From positions 11,855 to 75,854 of the forward strand of contig JACPKF010000009.1 in NCBI GenBank assembly GCA_016187125.1: DNA of 64,000 nucleotides. Direction: 5' to 3'. The stretch is from Candidatus Saccharimonadota bacterium (GTDB lineage: Bacteria > Patescibacteriota > Saccharimonadia > Saccharimonadales > UBA10212). Of the stretch, positions 69 to 59,881 are shown one piece after another. The notes under the pieces were generated by a model. That model was not told the DNA's origin. It saw only the letters and a list, made by a program, of their open reading frames with translations, and ran no database searches. How positions within the stretch are numbered: the first letter of the stretch is position 1; the number at the start of each line of letters is the position of its first letter. Both the position numbers and the translations under genes were made by a program.

Positions 69-1790
69 ATGCTCTATCAACATGGCTTTACAGTGCTGAA
101 AAGGGAGTTGTCACCCGAGCTAGTTTCATCATTTATCCAACAAGCAAGTGCCGAATTATCCCGTAAACACCAAGAAACTGGCCAAGCTGTTTACCAACAA
201 CCATTTATAGAAGCCTTTGAGGCCGCGTTCGCTAAAGAGATCGAGTTTGATAAGGAACTAGGAAAAATTCTTGTAGAAGATTCAGCCGAAGTTGCGGCCT
301 TGCCAGACAATGATGCGGGGGCCCAAAAAGAAGTGACAGCTCCGGCTCCAATTAGCGATGATGATAGGGAGTTTGAAGCTTGGCGAGCAGGCGAGGGTAA
401 CGAGGGGGCCATACCAGAGCCGAGTGATAAATCTAAAGCTGTTGCTTGGGGCGCCGAAACAGAAGAAAATGAAGCCAAAGAACCAGAAAAGTCAGATAAA
501 GAAATCGAATTCGAGCAAGCTTTAGCAGAATGCCAAGATGCGGTTCAACTAAGAACGCTGATTGAGGAGAGAGCTGCAATGATAAAAGCCGAGATCGATC
601 AGCGGAGCATCGACGCCAAAGAGATGATCTATCTAAAAGATAATAACGATGCGCACATATTGAAGACTGCTGAAGCTATGATTACTGCTGGAAATCTTCC
701 GCGTGCTTTAAGCTTGTTAACACAAGAGGGCATCTCAGAGCAACGAAAAGAGGCACTGCTCACCGCCATAGAAAGTCAGTTAGCAGACTCAGCGGCTAGT
801 TGGCTCAGAGGCCGTCATTATTATTATTTGCAAGAAGCGCAATCCGCAATAGATGGAATGCCTTTGCCCGATTCTGATAAGGCACAAATAAGGGCATATT
901 TGGATGCAGATATTTTTAAAATTATTAGCAATGCGGCAAGTAGAGCTAATGAAGGAGATGAAATAGAGAGTGATATCCAAAGTTCTAGGGCACTCGATGC
1001 GTTAGCTTATATTTCAGACCCAGCCTTAGCCGTCAAAATCAAGGAAATCCTCGAGCTTAAAGAACCTCCGGCAATACCCGTCAATATTGAAGAGGATTTG
1101 GTACCCAGTACAATAACAACCATAGAACCCCCGGCTGACGCAAGTATGAAAGAATGGAAGGAATGGTATTTAACAACTCCTGTCGAGAACTTATCTGATA
1201 AGGATTTCGAGCATTATCTTCTAATTAAACTCACTGAAGGAAAACGCATTATTCAAAATGGGTCATTCAGAGCTTATGATGATCTGGGACTTCGGGACAG
1301 AAAGGCGTTTTCGGTTGTTAAGAATATTGAGCGAAAAATCTCTTATAAATCGACCAAAAACCATGACCCTTACAATATATTGAAAAGAGCCTTCAAGAGA
1401 TTAGACAAAAAAGTGCCAAAGGACGAATTAGGGCTGGCTAAAGCATCATTTTGCCCTATTGTTTTAGGGCTAGCAGACTCAATACTTAAACATGCACCAA
1501 AAAGACAGACCCTTGAAATTACCAGCGGAAAAGCTATTCAGCTAATCAATGAGTTTGCTTCGGATGAAGGATCAGCACATATCATGAGAGAAGCACTTGA
1601 TTTAGAGATTTTGATTACGGCTCGTAGAGCCCACCAAAATATGAATTATCCCGGCCAAGATGATACGGGCGGTGATCCTCTAGAAATTGTTAAACATGCC
1701 TCGAGCGAGAGAGTTGCAAAAAGAATGTTGCAAGCGCTAGGAATAAGTCCAGCAGGTACTGAGGGGAGCAATAGTCCAGTCGCTAGATAA
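69..1790 (+). CDS. hypothetical acidic protein, possibly 5'-truncated by the window edge
   Basis: 573-codon ORF, very acidic, no motif I recognise. The frame has no stop between nt 3 and the ATG at 69, so it may start left of the window. Confidence 0.5.
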   Translation: MLYQHGFTVLKRELSPELVSSFIQQASAELSRKHQETGQAVYQQPFIEAFEAAFAKEIEFDKELGKILVEDSAEVAALPDNDAGAQKEVTAPAPISDDDREFEAWRAGEGNEGAIPEPSDKSKAVAWGAETEENEAKEPEKSDKEIEFEQALAECQDAVQLRTLIEERAAMIKAEIDQRSIDAKEMIYLKDNNDAHILKTAEAMITAGNLPRALSLLTQEGISEQRKEALLTAIESQLADSAASWLRGRHYYYLQEAQSAIDGMPLPDSDKAQIRAYLDADIFKIISNAASRANEGDEIESDIQSSRALDALAYISDPALAVKIKEILELKEPPAIPVNIEEDLVPSTITTIEPPADASMKEWKEWYLTTPVENLSDKDFEHYLLIKLTEGKRIIQNGSFRAYDDLGLRDRKAFSVVKNIERKISYKSTKNHDPYNILKRAFKRLDKKVPKDELGLAKASFCPIVLGLADSILKHAPKRQTLEITSGKAIQLINEFASDEGSAHIMREALDLEILITARRAHQNMNYPGQDDTGGDPLEIVKHASSERVAKRMLQALGISPAGTEGSNSPVAR

Positions 1791-2988: not shown

Positions 2989-3062
2989 GCCCAGTAGTAG
3001 ACTTTCGCGTATTTTACAAACTATCCGCTATAGCGGATAGTCGCGAAAGCTCACTACTGGGC
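2989..3062. repeat. nested-palindrome element, family A, copy 1
   Basis: Outer arms GCCCAGTAGTAGACTTTCGCG / CGCGAAAGCTCACTACTGGGC enclose the inner hairpin CTATCCGC-TATA-GCGGATAG. Confidence 0.85.
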
Positions 3063-3068
3063 TTGCCC

Positions 3069-3137
3069 CGCACTAAATCCTGAAGCGAGAAGAGAGAGTC
3101 CGCCAGCCGGCGGATCGAGCATCAAGGTTTTAGTGCG
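3069..3137. repeat. second nested palindrome in the same spacer
   Basis: Outer 9-bp stem CGCACTAAA / TTTAGTGCG around the inner hairpin TCCGCC-AGCC-GGCGGA (3099-3114). Confidence 0.7.
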
Positions 3138-3166: not shown

Positions 3167-3248
3167 AGAGGTCTGTCCTTGGAAAAAACAAAGAGATTTT
3201 TTGTAAAATCACTAAATTTTTCATATTTTTTTCCAAGGACAGACCTCT
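3167..3248. repeat. long-hairpin element, family B, copy 1
   Basis: 22-nt arms AGAGGTCTGTCCTTGGAAAAAA / TTTTTTCCAAGGACAGACCTCT. The loop carries the inner hairpin GATTTT-TTGT-AAAATC. Lies directly 3' of the PEBP gene stop. Confidence 0.85.
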
Positions 3249-3892: not shown

Positions 3893-4297
3893 ATGCTTAA
3901 AGTAAGTTCTAAAACTTTTCTGGCTTTGGTTGGTGAAGCTATCAACGCTATTCCGACTTTGTATCAAAAGCATTTACAGAATGTGGCCTTCATAATCGAG
4001 GATAATCCTTCCCAAGAACAACGCCAAAGATTGAGGCTTAACGACGGAAGTCTACTATTTGGACTATACGAAGGCGTGCCCTTAACCGAGCGTGGCGGCC
4101 GGACTAAACTTTTGCCCGATAAAATCACTATTTTTAAAAAACCGCTGGAACGTGTCAGCCAGAGTCTGCCCGATTTACGTGATCAAATTGCCCATACTGT
4201 TTGGCATGAAGTAGCTCATTACTATGGTCTGGGCCATAAGCGTATCTATGAGCTGGAACAAAAAGCCTCCGAGAATTTACAAAAACACGGCCGATGA
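3893..4297 (+). CDS. small zincin-like metallopeptidase family protein
   Basis: 134 aa with an HExxH motif (WHEVAHYYG) near the C-terminus, typical of minimal zincin-type proteins. Confidence 0.7.
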   Translation: MLKVSSKTFLALVGEAINAIPTLYQKHLQNVAFIIEDNPSQEQRQRLRLNDGSLLFGLYEGVPLTERGGRTKLLPDKITIFKKPLERVSQSLPDLRDQIAHTVWHEVAHYYGLGHKRIYELEQKASENLQKHGR

Positions 4298-4423
4298 TAG
4301 GTTACTGCCTGTCCTTTTGACGAAGGTCATTCTTTGTTTTGTCTGATTGTCAAAGTCTGTGCATAAATATTGCAAAGTTATTGCCTGGGGCATATCATGA
4401 ACTCATTAACTAATGGAGGAGTT

Positions 4424-4726
4424 ATGAAATACTCTAAACAGCAAATGGTGGAGTGGCAAGTCCACTTTTTTGTAGGAGTAGCGGAACTGCTGCTACTACT
4501 GCGCGTAGTCTTGCGGTTCTTCAACGGGAACCCCGACGCGACTTTTGTGCACTGGGTTTACACTAATACCCAAGTGTTAATAGAGCCAGTCCGCAATGTC
4601 TTTGTTTCGGCCGGGGTGATAGAGCGCGGCTGGGTAGTAGACTATGTAGCACTGTTCACCATGGCCGTCTATGCTGCCGCTGGCTACTTGCTGATCGGTT
4701 TACTGAACCGCTGGGTCAAGAAATAA
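4424..4726 (+). CDS. YggT-like small membrane protein
   Basis: GGAGGA sits 4 nt upstream of ATG 4424. Two hydrophobic helices and a YggT-like pattern (LRFFNGNP ... EPVR). The track ORF start at 4370 is judged too early. Confidence 0.6.
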   Translation: MKYSKQQMVEWQVHFFVGVAELLLLLRVVLRFFNGNPDATFVHWVYTNTQVLIEPVRNVFVSAGVIERGWVVDYVALFTMAVYAAAGYLLIGLLNRWVKK

Positions 4727-4960: not shown

Positions 4961-5016
4961 CTTAGCGCCGAGTGCTTCGCAACTATCCGCCACAGGCGGA
5001 TAGTCTCGGCGCTAAG
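4961..5016. repeat. nested palindrome, related in architecture to family A
   Basis: Outer arms CTTAGCGCCGAG / CTCGGCGCTAAG around the inner hairpin CTATCCGCC-ACA-GGCGGATAG, which has the same core as copy 1 of family A. Confidence 0.75.
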
Positions 5017-5811: not shown

Positions 5812-5848
5812 ATTTCCAGGGTACGACCCTGGAAATGACCCTGGAAAT
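5812..5848. repeat. REP-like hairpin (left) with duplicated right arm
   Basis: ATTTCCAGGGT-ACG-ACCCTGGAAAT, then a second GACCCTGGAAAT. Confidence 0.85.
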
Positions 5849-6477: not shown

Positions 6478-6503
6478 AAAAATATACTAACAACATATTC
6501 CCT

Positions 6504-6532
6504 CTATTTCCAGGGTCCGACCCTGGAAATAG
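6504..6532. repeat. REP-like hairpin (right)
   Basis: CTATTTCCAGGGT-CCG-ACCCTGGAAATAG, a 13-bp perfect stem. Confidence 0.85.
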
Positions 6533-6555
6533 AAGACGGAATGTAAAATAGGGAT

Positions 6556-8011: not shown

Positions 8012-10639
8012 TTGTTAGGATTGAATACTAAAGTTTTAAAACGAATGCTTGGTGACCCTCAGGCGTCGACGATTAAACGCTTAAAAAAACGCGTTCGCGA
8101 AATTAATGCTTTGGCTGATAAGTATAAAAAAATGAGCGATACGCAGCTCAAAGGCCAGACAGCCGAGCTAAAAAAGCGTCTGGAAAAAGGCGGTAGCCTT
8201 GATAAGATTCTACCCGAAGCCTTTGCGGTTGTTCGTGAAGCTTCAACCCGAACTTTAAAACAGCGGCATTTTGACGTCCAGTTAATTGGCGGCATGGTGC
8301 TGCACGAAGGCGGAGTCGCTGAAATGAAAACCGGCGAAGGCAAGACTCTGGTAGCCACGTTGCCGGTTTATCTCAACGGCCTGGAAGGCCAGGGTGTGCA
8401 TATAGTCACAGTTAATGATTATCTGGCGCAGCGTGACGCTGGATGGATGGGCCAAATTTATGACTTTCTGGGCTTGTCCGTAGGAGTAATTATTCCCGAC
8501 CAGTCTTACATATATGATCCTAAATATGAAAACAAAGACCATTTTGATGAACGCTTTTCTCACCTTCGTCCAGCTACTCGCCAAGAGGCCTACCAAGCTG
8601 ATATAACTTATGGCACCAATAACGAGTTCGGCTTTGATTACCTGCGCGATAACATGGTCCGCGAAGTTGACCAATTGCGCCAACGCGATTTGCATTACGC
8701 CATCGTAGACGAAGTCGACTCTATTTTGATTGACGAAGCTCGCACTCCGCTAATTATTAGCGCGCCGTCGGCGGCCAGCGCTACCGCTTACAGCCAATTT
8801 GCTCGAGTTGTTAGGCAGCTTAAGGAAACGCAGCATTACGAGAAAGACGAGAAACGCCGCAGTGTAATCCTGACCGACGCTGGCGTAGAGTTCGTCGAGC
8901 GTATCTTAGGTATCGAAAATCTGTATTCAACTGATAATTTGCGAACCATTTACCACCTTGAGCAAGCCTTAAAAGCTCAGGTTTTGTTTAACCGTGATAA
9001 AGACTACGTGGTGACTAACGAGGGCGAAATCGTCATAGTCGATGATTTTACCGGCCGCCTACTTAAAGGCCGGCGTTATAACGAAGGCCTGCATCAGGCG
9101 ATTGAAGCCAAAGAAGGCGTGGCAGTCCAAGAAGAATCCATGACGCTGGCCACAATTTCTTTCCAAAATTACTTCCGACTTTATAAGAAACTGTCCGGTA
9201 TGACCGGTACGGCCATGACAGAAAGTGAAGAGTTCCATCAAATTTATAAACTTAACGTTGTTGAGGTGCCGACTAATCAGCCCAATATACGTGACGACTT
9301 ACCGGATCGTATTTATAAATCCGAAGCTGGCAAATATAGGGCCATCACGCGCGAGGTCAAAGAACTTAACAAAAAAGGTCAACCAGTACTGCTTGGTACC
9401 GTCAGTGTTGAGAAAAATGAACTGCTGTCGACACTGCTCAAAAAAGCCGACATAACCCATGAAGTTTTGAATGCCAAAAATAACGAACGGGAAGCCGCAA
9501 TTATTGCCAAAGCCGGTCAAAAAGGTGCCGTTACGCTAGCGACTAATATTGCGGGGCGAGGTACTGATATCGTGTTGGGCAAAGGCATAACCGATCTGGG
9601 CGGCTTATTCGTGCTGGGGTCAGAACGCCACGAGTCACGTCGTATTGACAACCAGCTGCGCGGACGTACCGCACGTCAAGGTGATCCTGGAATCACCCAG
9701 TTTTATGTTTCCTGCCAAGATGATTTAATGCGTGTTTACGGCGGTGATAAAATCGCTGGCCTAATGACTAAATTAAGAGTTGATGAAGACACGCCGATCC
9801 AAAGTCGGATGATTACCAAAAGCCTGGAGGGCGCCCAGAAAAAGGTTGAAGGCTTTAACTTTGATATGCGCAAAAATGTTGTGCAATATGACGACGTCAT
9901 GAACCGTCACCGCAAAGCAATTTATGCTATTCGCCGAGAGGTGCTGCGAGCAGAGGATATTAGTCCGCGGATCAAGAAGTTTATAGCCGAAGAAGCCGAA
10001 TTTTTTTCCAACCACCCAGAATCGTTGAGCGAAAGTTTTGAAGCCATTTTAACCGAAGTATTTCCGTTCGAAGACAAAACGCTCGACAAGCTGTTCGACG
10101 CCGAGGCTAGCAAATTCCAAAAATCTCTGCAAGAGGCTGCCAGCCAGCTATATGCCGATCAGGAAAAGCGTTTTGGCAATGAGGTTATGCGTAAAGTCGA
10201 ACGCGATGTCTATCTGCAGATTCTGGACAATTTGTGGATGCAGCACCTGGAAAACATGGATCATCTGCGCGAGGGGATACACTGGATCAGTGTCGGCCAA
10301 CGTGATCCGTTGGTGGAGTATCGTCGCCAATCTCAGCGGATATTTGACGAAATGCAAATGGTGCTGCGGCACGAAATCGTCAGAGCTATCATGCATGCCC
10401 AACCAATTGAGAAGGAGGTCTTAGAAGAAACAGTCGAGACTGATTTAACTCTCGCAGCTCGTGGTTCGGTTGATAACGCCAGTGAAATTTTAAGCGCCGA
10501 AACTTATGAAGAAAGCGACTTCAAATCAGCAAAAAATGAATCCGCCGCGGCGGACCAAGCTAAACTCCATAACCAGCGTAAAAAAGCCCGTAAAGCCGAG
10601 CGCCAACGCAAGAAGTCGGCTAAGCGCCGCAGAAAATAG
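8012..10639 (+). CDS. secA: preprotein translocase ATPase SecA
   Basis: Full-length SecA-like sequence (MKTGEGKT Walker A, DEVDSILIDEARTPLIIS). GGAGG at 8002-8006 favours TTG 8012 over the track start at 8000; the start is uncertain within 8000-8045. Confidence 0.93.
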   Translation: MLGLNTKVLKRMLGDPQASTIKRLKKRVREINALADKYKKMSDTQLKGQTAELKKRLEKGGSLDKILPEAFAVVREASTRTLKQRHFDVQLIGGMVLHEGGVAEMKTGEGKTLVATLPVYLNGLEGQGVHIVTVNDYLAQRDAGWMGQIYDFLGLSVGVIIPDQSYIYDPKYENKDHFDERFSHLRPATRQEAYQADITYGTNNEFGFDYLRDNMVREVDQLRQRDLHYAIVDEVDSILIDEARTPLIISAPSAASATAYSQFARVVRQLKETQHYEKDEKRRSVILTDAGVEFVERILGIENLYSTDNLRTIYHLEQALKAQVLFNRDKDYVVTNEGEIVIVDDFTGRLLKGRRYNEGLHQAIEAKEGVAVQEESMTLATISFQNYFRLYKKLSGMTGTAMTESEEFHQIYKLNVVEVPTNQPNIRDDLPDRIYKSEAGKYRAITREVKELNKKGQPVLLGTVSVEKNELLSTLLKKADITHEVLNAKNNEREAAIIAKAGQKGAVTLATNIAGRGTDIVLGKGITDLGGLFVLGSERHESRRIDNQLRGRTARQGDPGITQFYVSCQDDLMRVYGGDKIAGLMTKLRVDEDTPIQSRMITKSLEGAQKKVEGFNFDMRKNVVQYDDVMNRHRKAIYAIRREVLRAEDISPRIKKFIAEEAEFFSNHPESLSESFEAILTEVFPFEDKTLDKLFDAEASKFQKSLQEAASQLYADQEKRFGNEVMRKVERDVYLQILDNLWMQHLENMDHLREGIHWISVGQRDPLVEYRRQSQRIFDEMQMVLRHEIVRAIMHAQPIEKEVLEETVETDLTLAARGSVDNASEILSAETYEESDFKSAKNESAAADQAKLHNQRKKARKAERQRKKSAKRRRK

Positions 10640-15498: not shown

Positions 15499-15582
15499 GA
15501 GGTCTGCCCTTGCAAAAAGAAAGATAGGTAAAATCTGGTGATTTTGCGCAAAATCTCTTTACTTTTGGCAAGGGCAGACCTC
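15499..15582. repeat. long-hairpin element, family B, copy 2 (inverted relative to copy 1)
   Basis: Arms GAGGTCTGCCCTTGCAAAAAG / CTTTTGGCAAGGGCAGACCTC. The loop is the reverse complement of the copy 1 loop (AAAGAGATTTT-N4-AAAATCAC). Confidence 0.85.
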
Positions 15583-23436: not shown

Positions 23437-25329
23437 TTAAGCTGCTAGCCTGATTATTAAAGCGGCTGCAGCACGCGTAACTTTTTCTAAGTCCTGTGGC
23501 GTAGAGTAAGCATCAGGATGGTGGGCAAGGCCGTTGTTACGGCTTGGAGAAAAAAGCATGATTGTTGGCAACCCGGCACGGGCGGCATTTTGAGCATCAT
23601 GGCCGGCTGCACTAAACATGCTTACTGCAGAGCCAACCTCGAATTGATCAATGACATCAAGTGCCTTTAAGGCTAAGTCGTCATCCAGCTCGACTGGGTC
23701 GCCACTACCGGGCAATAGTTCACCAAAGTTAATCTCGGCGGCTGTACCAAGCTTCTTCGTCCGGCACTTAATTTCTTTAATCGCTTGTCCTCTGGTAGGG
23801 GCATCAATTCCTCTAATATCCAATCGAAGCGTTAACTTTCCCTCAGCACTAGTGCTAAAAGTACCGACAGTACCGACAACATTTTTATTAGCTAGATTTT
23901 CCGCTTCTTGATTAACGGCTACGACTAGCTCCAGTGCACTTTTTTGACGCCGGCGCATAGCCTCAGGCTCAAAAAACTGCCCGCCTTGATCGACTTCCTC
24001 AAGAGCTATAGGAGAGTCATCAAACCGCGTCTGATGTTGCCTATGCTGACTGTTACGCGTAAAGATCTGATTCTCGAGTGCTTCTGTTAGCTCTTGTAAC
24101 TCTTCTTCACTGTTGCCACCGACGCGTAGCTCAGCTTTAGTAACTCCTGGTACTTTATTAATTGCTTCGGCTTCAACTTCAATTTTACCGATTGCTACTA
24201 AAAGGGCTGGGATTCCACTGTCTATAATCGGCAGTAAAGTATTCGCTAACTCGACCAAACCATCTGCCCGGTTTTGACTGCCCATTGGCGTGGTACCGGA
24301 ATGATCGGCTTTACCATCAACGGTTAGCTTAAAGTATTTCATATAAGGATAGGTAGTATTATCTAGTGTAAGCGGAGAATTACCTATTCCCACCTCATAT
24401 CGATGGGGTGTAGCTATTGATTCGACTACTCCAATATCAATGCCCATTCTGGCTAAAATATCACCTTGCTCAACATGTGTTTCAATCACAAAGCCAGGCG
24501 CAGCAATCGCGTTACCCTTGGGGCCAATAAAAGGCTGGGTAGTTATATCCACACCCGGGCCCAACGCTTCACGTATGCTTTGATCGGTATCTTTCCGCGA
24601 GCCAAGATCTTTATCTTCCAGACCGTGGAAAATAGCCTTACTACCGAATAGGGCAATGTTGAACCGAGAAGATTCTTCGCCAGTTAGAGATGCAATAATT
24701 ATGTCTGCTGATGGTTTAAAGCCTGCTTCTTGCATAGCTTCAACAGCGATTATCGGACCAACTACTCCAAGTACGCCGTCATACATATCGCTATTCGGCA
24801 CGGTGTCCGTGTGGGATAGGGTCATGACTGCGTTGCGCTCCGGGTCGCTACCTCTTAAGCGTCCAAAGACAGCTAATGGATGGCGGTTATCGATCTCCAG
24901 ACCGGCAATCTCCATCATATTAATGATTGCCATACGGCCTTCGTAATCCGCTTTAGTTAAAGCCGGACGATTAGTTGCGTAGCGCTTTGGTTGCTCAAGA
25001 GTTGGCTCTAAGGCCGTGCCACCAATGCTGGCAATTTCTATCAGGCGCCGCTCAATTTCTTGTCCATCTATAAGACCAAGAGTTGTAAAGGTAAGTTCTT
25101 CTAGCTCGCCCTGGTGAAAGAGATCACTTAAAAGATCACGTGCTCCTTGTGCAGCAGATGGATCTCCGCTTTGTCTATCAGCTTCAGTCATAAGAATATT
25201 ATAAAAACTTTTGACTATATGGTCAAACTCTACTTGATAAGCTGACCTATCTCGTTTACCATAAGCGTATATGGAACCGAGTAACAAAAGTTCTACAATT
25301 TCTTTAGTTGTGATTATTATTTTGGCCAT
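23437..25329 (-). CDS. M20-family amidase (carbamoylase/allantoate amidohydrolase-like) with N-terminal extension
   Basis: SHTDTVPNSDMYDGVLGV and a downstream M20 pattern. The start is uncertain (M47 at ~25191 would remove the overlap with the divergent gene). Confidence 0.7.
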   Translation of the reverse strand: MAKIIITTKEIVELLLLGSIYAYGKRDRSAYQVEFDHIVKSFYNILMTEADRQSGDPSAAQGARDLLSDLFHQGELEELTFTTLGLIDGQEIERRLIEIASIGGTALEPTLEQPKRYATNRPALTKADYEGRMAIINMMEIAGLEIDNRHPLAVFGRLRGSDPERNAVMTLSHTDTVPNSDMYDGVLGVVGPIIAVEAMQEAGFKPSADIIIASLTGEESSRFNIALFGSKAIFHGLEDKDLGSRKDTDQSIREALGPGVDITTQPFIGPKGNAIAAPGFVIETHVEQGDILARMGIDIGVVESIATPHRYEVGIGNSPLTLDNTTYPYMKYFKLTVDGKADHSGTTPMGSQNRADGLVELANTLLPIIDSGIPALLVAIGKIEVEAEAINKVPGVTKAELRVGGNSEEELQELTEALENQIFTRNSQHRQHQTRFDDSPIALEEVDQGGQFFEPEAMRRRQKSALELVVAVNQEAENLANKNVVGTVGTFSTSAEGKLTLRLDIRGIDAPTRGQAIKEIKCRTKKLGTAAEINFGELLPGSGDPVELDDDLALKALDVIDQFEVGSAVSMFSAAGHDAQNAARAGLPTIMLFSPSRNNGLAHHPDAYSTPQDLEKVTRAAAALIIRLAA

Positions 25330-25930
25330 AGCCCTAGTTAGCGCGCTAGCTTTTGGTTTTTGGGCCTTTACCGGCCGCCAGGATTATAAAAACAATTTTG
25401 ATAAAAAGGCCTCTGCTGCCGTGGAGCAAGCCAAGGCGACTCAAAAAATCGAACTGCAAAAACAGTTTGACGAGGCCTCCAAATTACCCTACAAGACCTA
25501 CTCGGGATCTGCGACCTATGGTTCGATTACCTTTAACTATCCAAAGACTTGGAGCGTTTACGTTGATGAAAATTCCAGCCAACCTCTTAATGCTTATTTT
25601 TATCCTGACGTGGTGCCCGGCCTCCAAACTAAAATTGCCTTTGCACTGCGGGTAGAGTTGGTGAACTCGGATTATGCGTCGGTTCTTACTTTGCATGACG
25701 CTCAAATCACGGATGGTACCTTGAAGGCTCGAGCTTACGTACCTCCTAAGATGCAAGGAGTAGCCAATATTCAACCGGGTGTCCGGCTAGACGGTACGAT
25801 ATCTCAGGATAAACAAGGCGCCATGGTAGTTATGAAAGTCCGCGATAAGACTTTAACTATCTACGCAGAATCTAAAGACTTCGTGTCAGATTTTAATACT
25901 GTGCTAGAAAGCTTAACCTTCGCCCCCTAA
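25271..25930 (+). CDS. hypothetical membrane-anchored exported protein
   Basis: 219 aa with an N-terminal TM helix (LVVIIILAIALVSALAFGFWAF); no family recognised. Confidence 0.55.
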   Translation: MEPSNKSSTISLVVIIILAIALVSALAFGFWAFTGRQDYKNNFDKKASAAVEQAKATQKIELQKQFDEASKLPYKTYSGSATYGSITFNYPKTWSVYVDENSSQPLNAYFYPDVVPGLQTKIAFALRVELVNSDYASVLTLHDAQITDGTLKARAYVPPKMQGVANIQPGVRLDGTISQDKQGAMVVMKVRDKTLTIYAESKDFVSDFNTVLESLTFAP

Positions 25931-40943: not shown

Positions 40944-41025
40944 GGAATAAACTCATAGCGCTCTAGGCGACAGACTTGGCGCTACATATTGCGCATAAGT
41001 AGCATAATCTGAAAAAACTGTGGAT

Positions 41026-41055
41026 AAGTGGTTCGTAAACGGACCACTTCTTTTT
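41026..41055 (+). terminator. rho-independent terminator
   Basis: AAGTGGTTCG-TAAA-CGGACCACTT followed by CTTTTT. A TGTGGATAA 9-mer overlaps its 5' side (41019-41027). Confidence 0.7.
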
Positions 41056-41070
41056 ATAAAGTGCTTGCGT

Positions 41071-41118
41071 GTGGGTAAGAGTGGGTAGTACACTCAGCTC
41101 AGTGGGTAAATGTGGGTA
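41071..41118 (+). promoter_or_regulatory. four GTGGGTA direct repeats upstream of mraZ (MraZ-box-like)
   Basis: GTGGGTA at 41071, 41081, 41102 and 41112 (spacing 10, 21 and 10 nt). Confidence 0.6.
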
Positions 41119-41196
41119 GCCAATCCGCCATCCGCCATCCGGCGGAGTCGGAAGCTCCTCACCAAAAAATAAAAACCACTATTTAAAAGAAAGACT

Positions 41197-41556
41197 ATGG
41201 GAGACTACTTCGAAAGAAAACTCGACGACAAAAGACGGCTGAGCATTCCGGCCGAACTTCGCGACGAGTTTGCTAGCGGAGTGGTAATAACCCGTGGTTT
41301 TAAAAACTATTTACACGTCTATCCTAAATCGGTCTGGGACGATCTGGTCGAGCCGGCTCTTCAAGGTAATATTCTTGATGAGCCAACAGCCGACAAGAAC
41401 GTTAGGTTTAGGATGGGGAAGGTCGAGAGCGAAATCGACGCCAAACAGGGCAGGATCACGCTGGATCAGCACTTGCTGGATCATGCCGGCATCAACCGCG
41501 ACGTTGTGGCGATTCGGGCTGGTAAGTATTGGCGCCTGATGGCAAAGCCGTCTTAA
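41197..41556 (+). CDS. mraZ: transcriptional regulator MraZ (short form)
   Basis: Two DxxxR-type motifs (LDDKRRLSIP, DAKQGRITL); first gene of the dcw cluster. Confidence 0.85.
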   Translation: MGDYFERKLDDKRRLSIPAELRDEFASGVVITRGFKNYLHVYPKSVWDDLVEPALQGNILDEPTADKNVRFRMGKVESEIDAKQGRITLDQHLLDHAGINRDVVAIRAGKYWRLMAKPS

Positions 41557-41591
41557 GTAAATAGACTTCGTACTTTAAAAATTAGCGGCAA

Positions 41592-41660
41592 GCCCAGCAG
41601 TAAGATCTCGCAATATTCGCTATCGCGAATATTTGAGGAAGACGCGAGCTCTACAGCTGG
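41592..41660. repeat. diverged family A-like nested palindrome
   Basis: Arms GCCCAGCAGTAAGATCTCGC / GCGAGCTCTACAGCTGG around the inner hairpin AATATTCGC-TATC-GCGAATATT. Confidence 0.65.
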
Positions 41661-41943
41661 ATAAATAAATTAGAGAACCAACATGAGTTACGCATCTGAT
41701 TTCCTCGGTTATCGGGAAGAGCAGGAGCGGTCCGCCGTAGGCGGATTCGGATTCATTCCGAAAGCGACGATGGGAAACTCCGAAGGGGTGTCCCATTACC
41801 CTCAAGGTTAGCTAATTGGCAGTCAGCCGGTGGGTAATTAGGGTAACATCGTTAACAACACCCTTGTTCATTTTTCAATGTAACACCTCCCAAAACTCCA
41901 CCTCACAAAGTCTCTCACAAGAACTTTAGGAGCCTAGCAGCAA

Positions 41944-42133
41944 GTCCCACCCAATTTGCCTAGCAAATTGGGGAACCCAAATTCATAAATTTGGGTGGGA
42001 CGCGCTCTGAGCTCCACATAAAAACAAAAAACCCCAAAAACAAAAAGCTGGCTGCTAATTAGGTGACCTTGTTCACCCCCACCCAAATTTATGAATTTGG
42101 GTTCCCCAATTTACTCAAGTAAATTGGGTGGGG
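41944..42133. repeat. composite element: two 58-nt CCCACCCAATTT-type modules in inverted orientation around a 74-nt core
   Basis: 41944-42001 is the reverse complement of 42076-42133 except for one hairpin loop. Each module holds two hairpins. Confidence 0.85.
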
Positions 42134-42239
42134 CAAAAAACAAAAACACCAAAAACACCCCACACCTTTTCACGAAGTTTCGTAATCCGCCGCAGGCGGA
42201 CTACTTCACTCAGAAAAGGTAAGGGGCAAGAAAAAAAAG

Positions 42240-43115
42240 ATGGTTGAAGAACCTCAACATGTTCCAGTGTTGCTTGAGTGTGTACTTAAGTATCTTGACC
42301 CGAAGCCAGGAGAATCATATCTGGATCTGACGGCAGGTTACGGCGGACATGCCAGCGCCATGCTGGAAAGAACCTTAAATAGTCGAGCAGTACTCGTTGA
42401 CCGCGACGGGCAGGCGATTGCATATTTGCGCAGGCATTTTAAAGATGCTGAAATTTTACACAGTGATTTTTTGTCTGCCGCCCAGAAACTGGTAGAGCAG
42501 GGGGAACGTTTCGACATGATCCTGGCTGATCTGGGAGTAAGTTCATATCAGCTTGGTAGAGCCGATCGTGGCTTTTCAATCAAACTCTCCGGCCCGCTGG
42601 ATATGAGAATGGACCCCACTCAGCACTTAAGCGCTGATCGAGTCGTTAACGAGTGGGACGAAAAAAGCTTGGCTATTATTTTTCGCGACTACGGGCAGGA
42701 ACCAAAAGCCCGAACTATCGCCCGGAAAATAATAACCAACCGTCCAATCAACACAACCGATAAACTTGCCGCAATTGTCGCTAGTGCTTGGCAAGGAAGA
42801 AGCAGGACTCATCCCGCTACTCGAACATTCCAGGCAATCAGAATAGCCGTCAACGAGGAACTGACTCAACTGGAGCGCAGTCTGCCACTTCTTATAAGGT
42901 TGTTGGTTCCAGGTGGACGCTTGGCTGTTATCAGCTTTCACAGTCTGGAAGATCGGATAATCAAGAGCTTTTTTGCCGAACACGCAGCCGATACTTACGA
43001 CAGCGAGCTTAAGCTTCTGACTAAAAAACCGCTGAGGGCTAGCGACCAAGAAATAGCTTTTAATCCACGAGCTCGGAGTGCCAAGCTCCGAGCCGCAGCA
43101 AAAATAAAAAAATAG
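42240..43115 (+). CDS. rsmH: 16S rRNA (cytosine1402-N4)-methyltransferase
   Basis: HVPVLL N-terminus, LDLTAGYGGHA, DLGVSSYQL and a C-terminal NPRARSAKLR. Confidence 0.93.
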   Translation: MVEEPQHVPVLLECVLKYLDPKPGESYLDLTAGYGGHASAMLERTLNSRAVLVDRDGQAIAYLRRHFKDAEILHSDFLSAAQKLVEQGERFDMILADLGVSSYQLGRADRGFSIKLSGPLDMRMDPTQHLSADRVVNEWDEKSLAIIFRDYGQEPKARTIARKIITNRPINTTDKLAAIVASAWQGRSRTHPATRTFQAIRIAVNEELTQLERSLPLLIRLLVPGGRLAVISFHSLEDRIIKSFFAEHAADTYDSELKLLTKKPLRASDQEIAFNPRARSAKLRAAAKIKK

Positions 43116-43219
43116 AAAGGAACTGTAAAAAAACTCATGCCGATTAAGGTAAAGAGTCAATCCCGGTCTTATAAGGTTCCAGTTAGGATCGTTCACTAAC
43201 GGAGAAAGAGGACCGGTAC

Positions 43220-43250
43220 CCCACCCAATTTTGTAAAAAAATTGGGTGGG
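43220..43250. repeat. CCCACCCAATTT-family hairpin
   Basis: CCCACCCAATTTT-GTAAA-AAAATTGGGTGGG, a 13-bp perfect stem. Confidence 0.85.
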
Positions 43251-43298
43251 AGCCAAAACCCTAAGGGGTAGGCAAAAATAAAAAGAAAAAGAAAAAAT

Positions 43299-43646
43299 AT
43301 GACATATTCAAGCTCAGTATCATACGCTCGTCGAGGTTACGGTCGTCGTAATCAAAACGCTGTATCGCTTATGGCTACCACCAAAAGTCTTGGGCCGGTG
43401 AGCAACACAATCATCCTGATTGTTTTAGCTTGCCTAATAGGTTTGCTATACCTTACACAGGTCACCAAGACTAACAGTTACGGCTATACTATTAATGGCT
43501 TGCAAAAGCAACAAAAAGATCTGCAGCGCCAGAAGGCTGATTTAGAGATTAGCTCAGCTAGACTGCAATCACTTGAGCGCGTAGTCAATAGCAACGCTGC
43601 CAAGAGTTTAGTCTCGGTTGCGCCCTTAGGTACTATTTCCCAATAG
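43299..43646 (+). CDS. ftsL: FtsL-like bitopic division protein
   Basis: 115 aa with one TM helix then a coiled coil, located between rsmH and ftsI. Confidence 0.65.
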   Translation: MTYSSSVSYARRGYGRRNQNAVSLMATTKSLGPVSNTIILIVLACLIGLLYLTQVTKTNSYGYTINGLQKQQKDLQRQKADLEISSARLQSLERVVNSNAAKSLVSVAPLGTISQ

Positions 43647-59247: not shown

Positions 59248-59376
59248 TGCAACTCATAAGCGTTATTTAATGCTTATGTACCTTATACCCCCAAATTTCC
59301 GGTTGTTCGCCAAGGCGGACGACGGAATAAAATGTTTAAGATTCTAAGGTAAGTTGATACCCTCCACTTGCCCTAG

Positions 59377-59460
59377 TCCCACCCAATTTTTTGGTTTTAA
59401 CTTGAGTATAGTAACCAAATTTAATTAATACAATTGTTTAAGCTTAAAAATTGGGTGGGA
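59377..59460. repeat. CCCACCCAATTT-family element with 15-bp perfect arms
   Basis: TCCCACCCAATTTTT-54 nt-AAAAATTGGGTGGGA. The interior shares ACTTGAGTA with the module at 42076-42133. Confidence 0.85.
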
Positions 59461-59689
59461 AATCTTAAACAACTTATTCCCTTTAACTCCTCGCCCGCAA
59501 AAATTTCTTTGAAATTTCGGCGGGTCCTCAACGTGGGTAGACATGCGAGCTCACGCTCGCGTTCCATCGGGCTTGCCTGGTGGACGGCGCTAGACCTTAG
59601 CTTTTCGCGGGTTATTAGATTGCTTTGTCGATGGTGGGGTTGAAGGGTGTAAATTGGGCTTGATTCGCCAGCTGGCGAATCGAGCCCGC

Positions 59690-59737
59690 AATGAACCTCC
59701 AGCGGTGCCCACCCCCTCTGGAGGTTCATTGTTTTCT
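59690..59737 (+). terminator. terminator-like hairpin
   Basis: AATGAACCTCCAG-15 nt-CTGGAGGTTCATT (13-bp perfect stem) followed by GTTTTCT. Confidence 0.55.
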
Positions 59738-59881
59738 GGTGCCCACCTTCCCGTTATTTTCTGCTGAAAATACGGTCAGGCCCGCCTCGGTGCCGTCGCA
59801 CCTGCGGTTTCCGAACTGCCGCCGGCAGTTCTCACCCTCTGGAGGCTCTTCGTAAGGTTGGTTTTCTACTAGGAAGTTAGC

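Follow-up and report, generated by a model that had tools for sequence, protein, structure and literature searches.

Why do mraZ and rsmH, at the head of the dcw cluster (genes for cell division and the cell wall), stand 683 nucleotides (nt) apart in this Candidatus Saccharimonadota genome, and what are the CCCACCCAATTT inverted repeats carried by the intervening DNA? We addressed both questions within the 64,000-nt stretch of contig JACPKF010000009.1 (hereafter the window) and in relatives. The answer has two parts. Comparative evidence gives good support to a conserved, structured plus-strand RNA encoded at 41804–42071, which has no Rfam match and is previously undescribed. The repeats are hairpins on and beside this RNA, belonging to a family found on several unrelated RNAs of the clade, and we read them tentatively, with a probability of about 0.45, as members of a DNA palindrome cassette of low copy number, which is copied to sites of hairpins and whose transcript is a helix that the host RNA tolerates. 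The argument turns on the following features.

41804–42071, plus strand: gap RNA, with helices P1 and P2, a pseudoknot and an invariant core (alignment A1, 12 lineages)
41944–42001, plus strand: hairpin module 1, a double hairpin, at the variable-hairpin position of the gap RNA
42076–42133, plus strand: hairpin module 2, which copies module 1 in inverted orientation and separates the gap RNA from the A/C-rich leader of rsmH
43220–43250, plus strand: hairpin 3, simple, with a 13-base-pair (bp) perfect stem; the ftsL-leader hairpin, orthologous across lineages
59377–59460, strand unassigned: fourth copy, whose perfect 15-nt arms enclose 52 nt of A/T-rich sequence, within the pth-dprA spacer (860 nt)

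A conserved structured RNA between mraZ and rsmH

Eleven relatives (MraZ 79–90% and RsmH 55–63% identical to the window), obtained by a hairpin search and via MraZ homologues, were compared at the mraZ–rsmH junction. The first-pass annotation of the window had regarded the two genes as usually adjacent and had suggested this comparison; adjacency does not hold in this Saccharibacteria clade, where all 11 relatives keep a gap of 326–544 nt. The gap is the normal state and no local oddity.

Alignment A1 comprises these relatives and the window, and its consensus structure was predicted with RNAalifold. The RNA is about 245–285 nt long and has the same orientation as the dcw genes. It is closed by P1, a 24-bp helix (41804–41827 with 42047–42070) in which pairs 4–302 (GC/AU/GU), 14–292 (UA/UG/CG), 20–286 (UG/UA/CG) and 23–283 (GC/GU/AU) covary, and whose many G·U pairs are valid on the plus strand only. 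Within it lies the P2 hairpin at 41828–41851 (CGGUG/CAUCG), with covarying pairs 26–49 and 27–48. The P2 loop AGGGU (41840–41844) forms a pseudoknot with ACCCU 15 nt downstream (41860–41864), and this pairing covaries as well, with the compensated variants GAGGAC/GUCCUU, AAAGG/CCUUU and GGGGA/UCCCU. An invariant, single-stranded, C/A-rich core of 27 nt with two CACCUC boxes (UAACACCUCCCAAAACUCCACCUCACA, 41881–41907) is followed by variable hairpins and then by an A/C-rich tract. Its 23-nt part CACCTCCCAAAACTCCACCTCAC is identical in every lineage, while coding DNA is only about 65–70% identical, and a search for these 23 nt with up to four mismatches returned matches only in mraZ–rsmH gaps.

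Rfam gave no match anywhere in the window at gathering score and only noise (microRNA-like hairpin matches) for 40950–43350 at E up to 10, with none for the gap or the hairpins, the models of the mraW motif and 6S RNA included; in the literature we found no description of the gap RNA or of the hairpin. The gap RNA may be a cis-acting leader or a processed RNA of the dcw transcript, its 24-bp closing helix resembling a processing stem and its invariant single strand (ACACCUCCC...CCACCUCAC) a possible functional binding surface. The invariant strand (41881–41925, UGUAACACCUCCC...CCACCUCACA) also resembles the universally conserved segment of 16S rRNA around C1402 (UGUACACACCGCCCGUCACACC), the target of RsmH, and it contains the anti-Shine–Dalgarno core CACCUCC. 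Both resemblances could be coincidence in C/A-rich sequence.

Actinobacteria carry the mraW RNA motif (Rfam RF01746) upstream of mraW/rsmH. The gap RNA is similar in being a conserved RNA structure that lies, at the start of the dcw genes, between mraZ and rsmH/mraW. It differs in its much larger size, in its pseudoknot and 24-bp closing helix, in belonging to a different phylum and in lacking an Rfam match even at E up to 10. The mraW RNA motif is named in PMC3488235. If upheld, the structured RNA, together with the conserved 20-residue micro-ORF (open reading frame) and ftsL-leader hairpin described below, would provide direct handles on division-gene control in organisms that are hard to study.

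The hairpin repeats and their recent arrival in the gap

The arm motif is CCCACCCAAWTT, and the stem it forms, CCCACCCAAUUU/AAAUUGGGUGGG, is referred to here as the CCCACCC hairpin. A search allowing one mismatch found eight arms in the window, all perfect, against 0.82 expected, and none of 100 shuffles reached eight. All eight pair, giving four hairpins at 41946–41999, 42078–42132, 43220–43250 and 59378–59459; no solitary arm or one-mismatch copy was found in the window, and allowing two mismatches added only background-like matches. The first-pass count of eight arms at four loci, three of them around rsmH, was accurate, as were the additional hairpins it placed at 43220–43250 and 59377–59460. 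Its two 58-nt modules are indeed reverse complements, inverted copies that are 97% identical over 38 nt, with 78 nt between their arms and even a sub-loop in common. Modules 1 and 2 each fold as a double hairpin with a closing stem of 4–5 bp (−33 and −27 kcal/mol, z −5.6 and −3.8, respectively). Logan unitigs, in which this sequence was assembled independently, end precisely at positions 42078 and 42083, showing that the repeat is real and confuses assemblers.

The closest relative, L109 (MraZ 90% identical), served as the empty-site reference, and has neither module. Where the window has module 1, the same flanks (GCAAG ... CGCG.C.TGAGCTCCAC) enclose another hairpin in L109, ATCCGCCTCGGCGGAT; at this site L025 has a simple CCCACCC hairpin only, and L080 (GTCCG-cttaccc-CGGAC), L037 and the other relatives have small, unrelated hairpins. 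Module 2 is a clean insertion of ~63 nt relative to L109, between CTTG and the CAAAAA/A/C-rich leader, and no target-site duplication is seen at its boundary against that empty site. The 74-nt A/C-rich "core" that the modules enclose corresponds to the last third, at the 3' side, of the conserved gap RNA and is present in relatives without the modules, and is therefore conserved host RNA and not the interior of an element. The first-pass annotation had grouped modules and core as one 190-nt composite. With the core conserved in 11 relatives, both modules absent from L109 and one present in L025, the composite, judged by this comparison, is instead two separate, recent additions.

The copy in the ftsL leader

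Between rsmH and ftsL, hairpin 3 follows a small reading frame.

43137–43199, plus strand: micro-ORF MPIKVKSQSRSYKVPVRIVH, between rsmH and hairpin 3

The micro-ORF has 19–22 codons with synonymous differences between lineages. It was parsed in 13 of 15 lineages and read by eye in L099 and L107; besides the window it occurs in L037, L013, L020, L069, L080, L087, L096, L102, L104, L106, L108 and L109. We know of no annotation or Pfam family for it; its product may be a small protein of division or a leader peptide with coupling to the translation of ftsL.

Where a CCCACCC hairpin is present, it always stands 8–31 nt past the micro-ORF and, where readable, 16–104 nt ahead of the ftsL start. It is perfect in seven relatives and has one mismatch in L109 (carriers include L037 (= L009), L013, L020, L069, L080 and L087, with L109 near-perfect). 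Seven equally distant relatives have unrelated hairpins at this spot (six parsed, L107 by eye), and no CCCACCC arm was found within 20 kb of the locus in those seven. Presence of the hairpin is patchy at equal divergence, and it follows neither micro-ORF nor FtsL groupings. Single-gene neighbour-joining trees are star-like and mutually conflicting; only the tree of the penicillin-binding protein (PBP) groups the three carriers available.

The same stem on other RNAs

The strict hairpin pattern occurs at nine loci in 185,579 species genomes, three of which lie in two Saccharibacteria metagenome-assembled genomes (MAGs). A looser pattern gave 81 metagenome loci, about half of them unrelated palindromes at chance level for a database of this size. 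These loci, outside the clade (Saprospiraceae, Clostridia, Isosphaeraceae and others), have CCACCC arms inside longer unrelated palindromes and were set aside, and the viral contigs yielded one unrelated match. The remaining metagenome loci share the form YCCCACCC...GGGTGGGR and have GC contents of 43–57%; the window has 45%.

Many of these copies sit within recognizable RNAs. The hairpin makes up the whole of P3 of RNase P RNA in L073 and L051, directly before GAGGAAAGUCCGG, and is an insertion in 23S rRNA after model position 312 in L059 and L029. In L011, which comes from the same MAG as L013, it is the tip of P3 in a SAM-I riboswitch upstream of metK (E 8e-5); the homologous SAM-I-like leader of L050, read by eye, has a simple CCCACCC copy at P3 and a UCCGCC hairpin as P4. 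Two copies lie inside an AdoCbl riboswitch aptamer match in L021 (E 5e-4, below gathering), after which DUF4430 and DUF6580 genes follow. In L065 the hairpin is the first hairpin of a recurrent RNA motif (motif ii, described below) located between a gene for class II ribonucleotide reductase and nrdR. Finally, at 847–923 (plus strand) of L091 it forms stem II of a candidate type III hammerhead ribozyme whose core is complete (CUGAUGA, GAAA, the A15.1–U16.1 pair and the cleavage-site C) and whose score of 27.6 bits misses Rfam's gathering threshold owing to the length of the CCCACCC hairpin in the place of stem II. The same stem occupies variable-stem sites of homologous RNAs at RNase P P3, 23S rRNA, SAM-I P3, AdoCbl, the hammerhead and motif ii. 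The CCCACCC hairpins are optional, lineage-specific decorations outside the conserved functional core.

Across 32 distinct copies the perfect Watson–Crick stem averages 15.3 bp, and the pair next past the stem end is G·U in only two. The copies rarely extend by G·U; the RNA-selected P1 helix, by contrast, is rich in such pairs. Loops range from 0 to 58 nt with no common sequence, and the flanking bases vary. Eight of the 32 are palindromic through the centre (for example ...TTTTCGA|TCGAAAA..., ...CAG|CTG..., ...AAG|CTT...), leaving a loop of 0–1 nt, which an RNA hairpin cannot use. Mirrored variants also exist, CCCGCCC/GGGCGGG in L047 and CCCGCC forms in L053 and L104.

A second family, UCCGCC-N2-8-GGCGGA, has six members in the window, where 0.01 would be expected. 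Motif ii and the leader of rsmH have members nested within them, and in L109 the variable hairpin of the gap RNA is of this family (read by eye).

3099–3114, 4986–5000, 10541–10554, 41131–41146, 41731–41745 and 42186–42200, window: UCCGCC family

Some neighbours of these copies may be recorded here. The L091 hammerhead lies upstream of a homologue of window ORF 25271–25930. In L059, whose 23S rRNA bears the hairpin, a group I intron (3912–4676) is located inside or beside the end of the same rRNA operon that carries 16S rRNA; introns in rRNA operons are typical of the candidate phyla radiation. At 1952–1986 of L094, from an organism of 36% GC, the mraY coding sequence has an insertion of 14 residues where a perfect palindrome of 35 nt, with the same arm, is found. 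It probably represents an unrelated lineage, and recalls the in-frame palindromic elements of Rickettsia.

How the hairpins may have spread

We favour the reading in which clade-specific perfect DNA palindromes are copied into, or replace, non-essential stem-loops of transcripts because of their recent gain in the window, the inverted duplicates, the perfect stems and palindromy through the centre, the variable-stem sites that they occupy in relatives, the patchy distribution, the lack of scattered single arms and the similar behaviour of the second family. Once placed, such palindromes would be carried as ordinary RNA helices. The window would then hold two recent copies on or next to the gap RNA, an older one as the ftsL-leader hairpin and a fourth in the pth-dprA spacer. 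That modules 1 and 2 are inverted and share a sub-loop points to copying at the DNA level. Beyond what the comparisons demonstrate directly (the family and its contexts, its recent gain in the window, the perfect palindromes and the gap RNA's structure), we infer that such copying proceeded by template switching or by hairpin-targeted copying, and that the copies are nearly neutral.

Several observations weigh against this interpretation. Where the context could be identified, most copies occupy RNA stems that were already there and not plain spacer, which random insertion does not predict. The two Saccharibacteria draft genomes have one and two strict matches, few for a self-propagating element, and no transposase, target-site duplication or copy mechanism was identified in 64 kb of genome and the relatives' fragments. 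Another concern is the ftsL leader, where the copy keeps 13 identical bp in at least seven lineages whose RsmH is only 55–61% identical to that of the window, while the corresponding stems of sister lineages covary freely; by this comparison the 13-bp identity looks like a sequence-specific constraint. The search itself required perfect arms, an ascertainment bias that inflates apparent conservation.

Short palindromes that spread wherever an extra hairpin is tolerated, including RNA genes, are exemplified by the Rickettsia palindromic elements and by the GC clusters and double-hairpin elements of mitochondria. The window family is like these in comprising short palindromic repeats of a reduced genome that also enter RNA genes, with double hairpins among them, but its members are perfect palindromes of 24–82 bp and few per genome. 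Unlike the Rickettsia elements, they were not seen in coding regions of the clade, and mostly they replace or extend an existing RNA stem. REP, BIME and REPIN sequences associated with RAYT are imperfect extragenic palindromes with a conserved 5' tetranucleotide, present in tens to hundreds of copies. Similarities to REP/BIME are the extragenic location, transcription as RNA hairpins, inverted pairs and lineage specificity; the differences from REP/REPIN are the perfect stem (mean 15.3 bp Watson–Crick), variable flanks and absence of a GTAG-like 5' tetranucleotide. As to copy number, the two Saccharibacteria drafts gave only one and two strict matches, and the window has four copies in its 64 kb.

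If upheld, the comparison would mean that, in a lineage of the candidate phyla radiation, one short helix recurs at the periphery of unrelated functional RNAs: rRNA, RNase P RNA, riboswitches of two classes, a hammerhead and the leaders of mRNAs. Spread as a DNA palindrome cassette would amount to an unrecognized colonization of RNA genes by palindromes in reduced genomes, would affect how insertions in rRNA and other non-coding RNAs are read and would explain assembly breaks.

Rather unlikely, although the best of the alternatives, is that the CCCACCC hairpin is the binding site of one clade-specific trans-acting factor (a chaperone or helicase anchor, a nuclease or a regulator) and has been selected onto many RNAs. 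This would account for a stem of 12–13 bp that is identical across genomes of 43–57% GC and in at least seven RNA contexts, for an ftsL-leader orthologue that is perfect in seven deeply diverged lineages with unrelated hairpins in others, for placement almost exclusively on peripheral helices of structured RNAs and for the low copy number. There is precedent in DEAD-box helicases, whose RNA-binding domain anchors them at particular elements of RNA; substrates used in studies of Hera include 23S rRNA and RNase P RNA (PMC3695512, PMC2566870). As with DbpA/YxiN on 23S hairpin 92, Hera and archaeal L7Ae/k-turns (PMC3695512, PMC5539422), one small module recurs in several unrelated RNAs, here 23S rRNA, RNase P RNA, SAM-I, AdoCbl, the hammerhead and leaders.

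Those known modules, however, are recognized via loops, bulges and single-stranded flanks, whereas the window family conserves only a perfect duplex. An A-form duplex is rarely read by sequence, and the loops and flanks that proteins do read are highly variable here, with no conserved loop, bulge or flank among the copies (loops 0–58 nt). Palindromy through the centre and the lack of G·U pairs are signatures of the DNA level. In other lineages, no more distantly related, the hairpin is missing entirely and 20 kb contain no arm; a need for a protein is difficult to imagine for riboswitch aptamers or a hammerhead; and conservation is inflated by the perfect-arm search. The fuller version, in which the CCCACCCAAUUU stem is an address tag whose one factor links the ribosome, RNase P, SAM and B12 riboswitches, a ribozyme and division-gene leaders, and in which the gap RNA with its ACACCUCCC...CCACCUCAC strand is a new dcw regulatory RNA recruiting the same factor, is doubtful, a little more so than the shared binding site by itself. 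An address tag, if true, would imply a shared protein–RNA recognition system. A domesticated mixture of the palindrome cassette and the binding site is plausible.

The first-pass annotation had listed three possibilities: a miniature inverted-repeat transposable element (MITE), operator dyads and structured RNA controlling division genes. The last of these stands in part. The gap does encode a conserved, covarying structured RNA and the hairpins are transcribed stem-loops, but the hairpins lie outside the functional core and nothing supports a link between them and division-gene control specifically.

A classical MITE, with the arms as terminal inverted repeats (TIRs) of a DDE transposase and the 190-nt composite as one element with 58-nt TIRs, is improbable and, like the operator and terminator readings below, is rejected. 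The copies do possess terminal inverted repeats in the form of perfect 12–15 nt arms around interiors of 0–58 nt, copies were gained recently in the window and assembly graphs break at the repeat. Against this, there is no target-site duplication at module 2 or in the flanks of other copies; the supposed interior is the 3' third of a conserved host RNA that exists without the modules, as in L109; many copies total 24–35 bp, too short for synapsis of two ends; and copies replace existing hairpins instead of interrupting sequence.

Two features upstream of mraZ bear on the remaining proposals.

41071–41119, plus strand: four MraZ-box-like direct repeats (GTGGGTAA/GTGGGTAG) in two 10-bp-phased pairs, outside the hairpin family
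41026–41049, upstream of mraZ: canonical terminator with a T-run (CTTTTTAT), from the terminator scan

DNA operator dyads for MraZ or another division-gene regulator are very improbable: three of the four window copies bracket rsmH and the arms contain GTGGG, the core of MraZ boxes, but the real boxes are conserved direct repeats GTGGGTAR with 10-bp phasing upstream of mraZ, whereas the arms (GGGTGGGR) are inverted, spaced by 0–58 nt and never single, relatives carry this hairpin within rRNA, RNase P RNA, the riboswitches of metK and B12 and a hammerhead, and the closest relative has the same operon without the gap copies. Equally remote are intrinsic terminators or attenuators inside the dcw operon, since the hairpins, although stable (−24 to −33 kcal/mol) and between genes, have no U-tract on either strand, are absent from the terminator scan (0 of 4), precede A/C-rich sequence and recur inside 23S rRNA and RNase P RNA, in a genome that uses canonical terminators such as that at 41026–41049.

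Other elements of the gap and the rsmH leader

Two further structured elements flank the gap RNA.

41713–41797, plus strand: motif ii, consisting of GGGAAGAGCAG, a variable hairpin and GAUGGGAAA-hairpin-UCCCAU, with a nested UCCGCC-GUAG-GGCGGA hairpin in the window
42158–42226, plus strand: stem-loop CCCCACACCUUUUC...GAAAAGGUAAGGGG of the rsmH leader, a short distance upstream of the start of rsmH, in which a UCCGCC-GCAG-GGCGGA hairpin is nested

In its general form motif ii reads GGGAAGAGCAG, variable hairpin, G.GAUGAGAAA-hairpin-UCUCAU, and its second helix AUGAGA/UCUCAU covaries, being AUGGGA/UCCCAU in the window and UUGAGG/CCUCAA in L102. Further copies were found at ~2340–2420 of the window (minus strand), at ~1925–2000 of L059 (minus strand) just 5' of 23S rRNA, at ~890–975 of L028, twice in L065 and in the gaps of L099, L102, L108 and L109. 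It has no Rfam match and is possibly a processing or leader element. The first-pass annotation had marked a possible 43-codon ORF at 41683–41814; an ORF does exist, as 41683–41811 (42 residues), but it overlies motif ii and is unsupported as a gene, with no Pfam match and no significant tblastn match in relatives. A second candidate gene, ORF 42091–42222, was rejected: it has no Pfam match, and its weak tblastn matches track repeated DNA of the hairpin and leader, not a protein.

Relative to L109, roughly the initial 100 nt (~100) of the gap, with the palindrome AATATTCGC/GCGAATATT among them, are specific to the window, and the leader stem-loop (−30.6 kcal/mol, z −5.95) is likewise an insertion relative to L109, where it is absent. 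Its homologue in L009/L037 is the leader of ftsL, with 79.5% identity to L009 over 122 nt. The block shared by 42121–42241 of the window and 422–537 of L009 consists of a hairpin, an A/C-rich linker, the leader stem-loop and an A-rich start region; it precedes rsmH in the window and ftsL in L009/L037, and the ftsL leader of the window keeps only a remnant of it (CCCUAAGGGG). These positions suggest that the leader module was duplicated or moved between rsmH and ftsL. A comparable case is that of putative mobile promoters, conserved 5' regions upstream of non-homologous genes (PMC3488235), with the difference that the unit propagated here is an RNA stem-loop module with no demonstrated promoter.

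Gene context and other palindromes in the window

The dcw genes of the window run in the order mraZ, rsmH, ftsL-like gene, PBP gene and mraY, and the coordinates of the Pfam-matched mraZ and rsmH agree with the 683-nt separation given in the first-pass annotation.

41197–41556, plus strand: mraZ (Pfam MraZ, E 2e-16; 100% identical to an NCBI protein named MraZ from Candidatus Saccharibacteria bacterium)
42240–43115, plus strand: rsmH (Methyltransf_5, E 5e-91)
43299–43646, plus strand: ftsL-like gene (65–78% identity in syntenic relatives)

The GTGGGTAR boxes at 41071–41119 are conserved in L009 and L025 and are the expected and genuine MraZ operator. The tRNA/tmRNA scan found none in the window, and the promoter and terminator scan gave no more sites than shuffles.

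In the non-coding pth-dprA spacer the fourth copy is adjoined by a CCCGCC-variant hairpin at ~59493–59525, and a 102-residue ORF there has no Pfam match. The minus strand of 59372–59740 (369 nt) is predicted to fold with several long perfect hairpins at z −6.96 against shuffles. The spacer (59460–59740, minus strand) may encode a further structured RNA, so far without annotation, with the fourth CCCACCC hairpin at its end.

Other palindromes with perfect stems of at least 10 bp lie at 2004–2053, 2989–3062, 3168–3247 and 15501–15580, 4961–5016, and 5812–5848 and 6503–6533 of the window. They include two families of two copies each, GGTCTGYCCTTG...CAAGGRCAGACC (80-bp units) and ATTTCCAGGGT...ACCCTGGAAAT. 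Counted together, hairpins with perfect stems of at least 10 bp number 30 in the 64-kb window, compared with 0–7 per 20 kb in four relatives.

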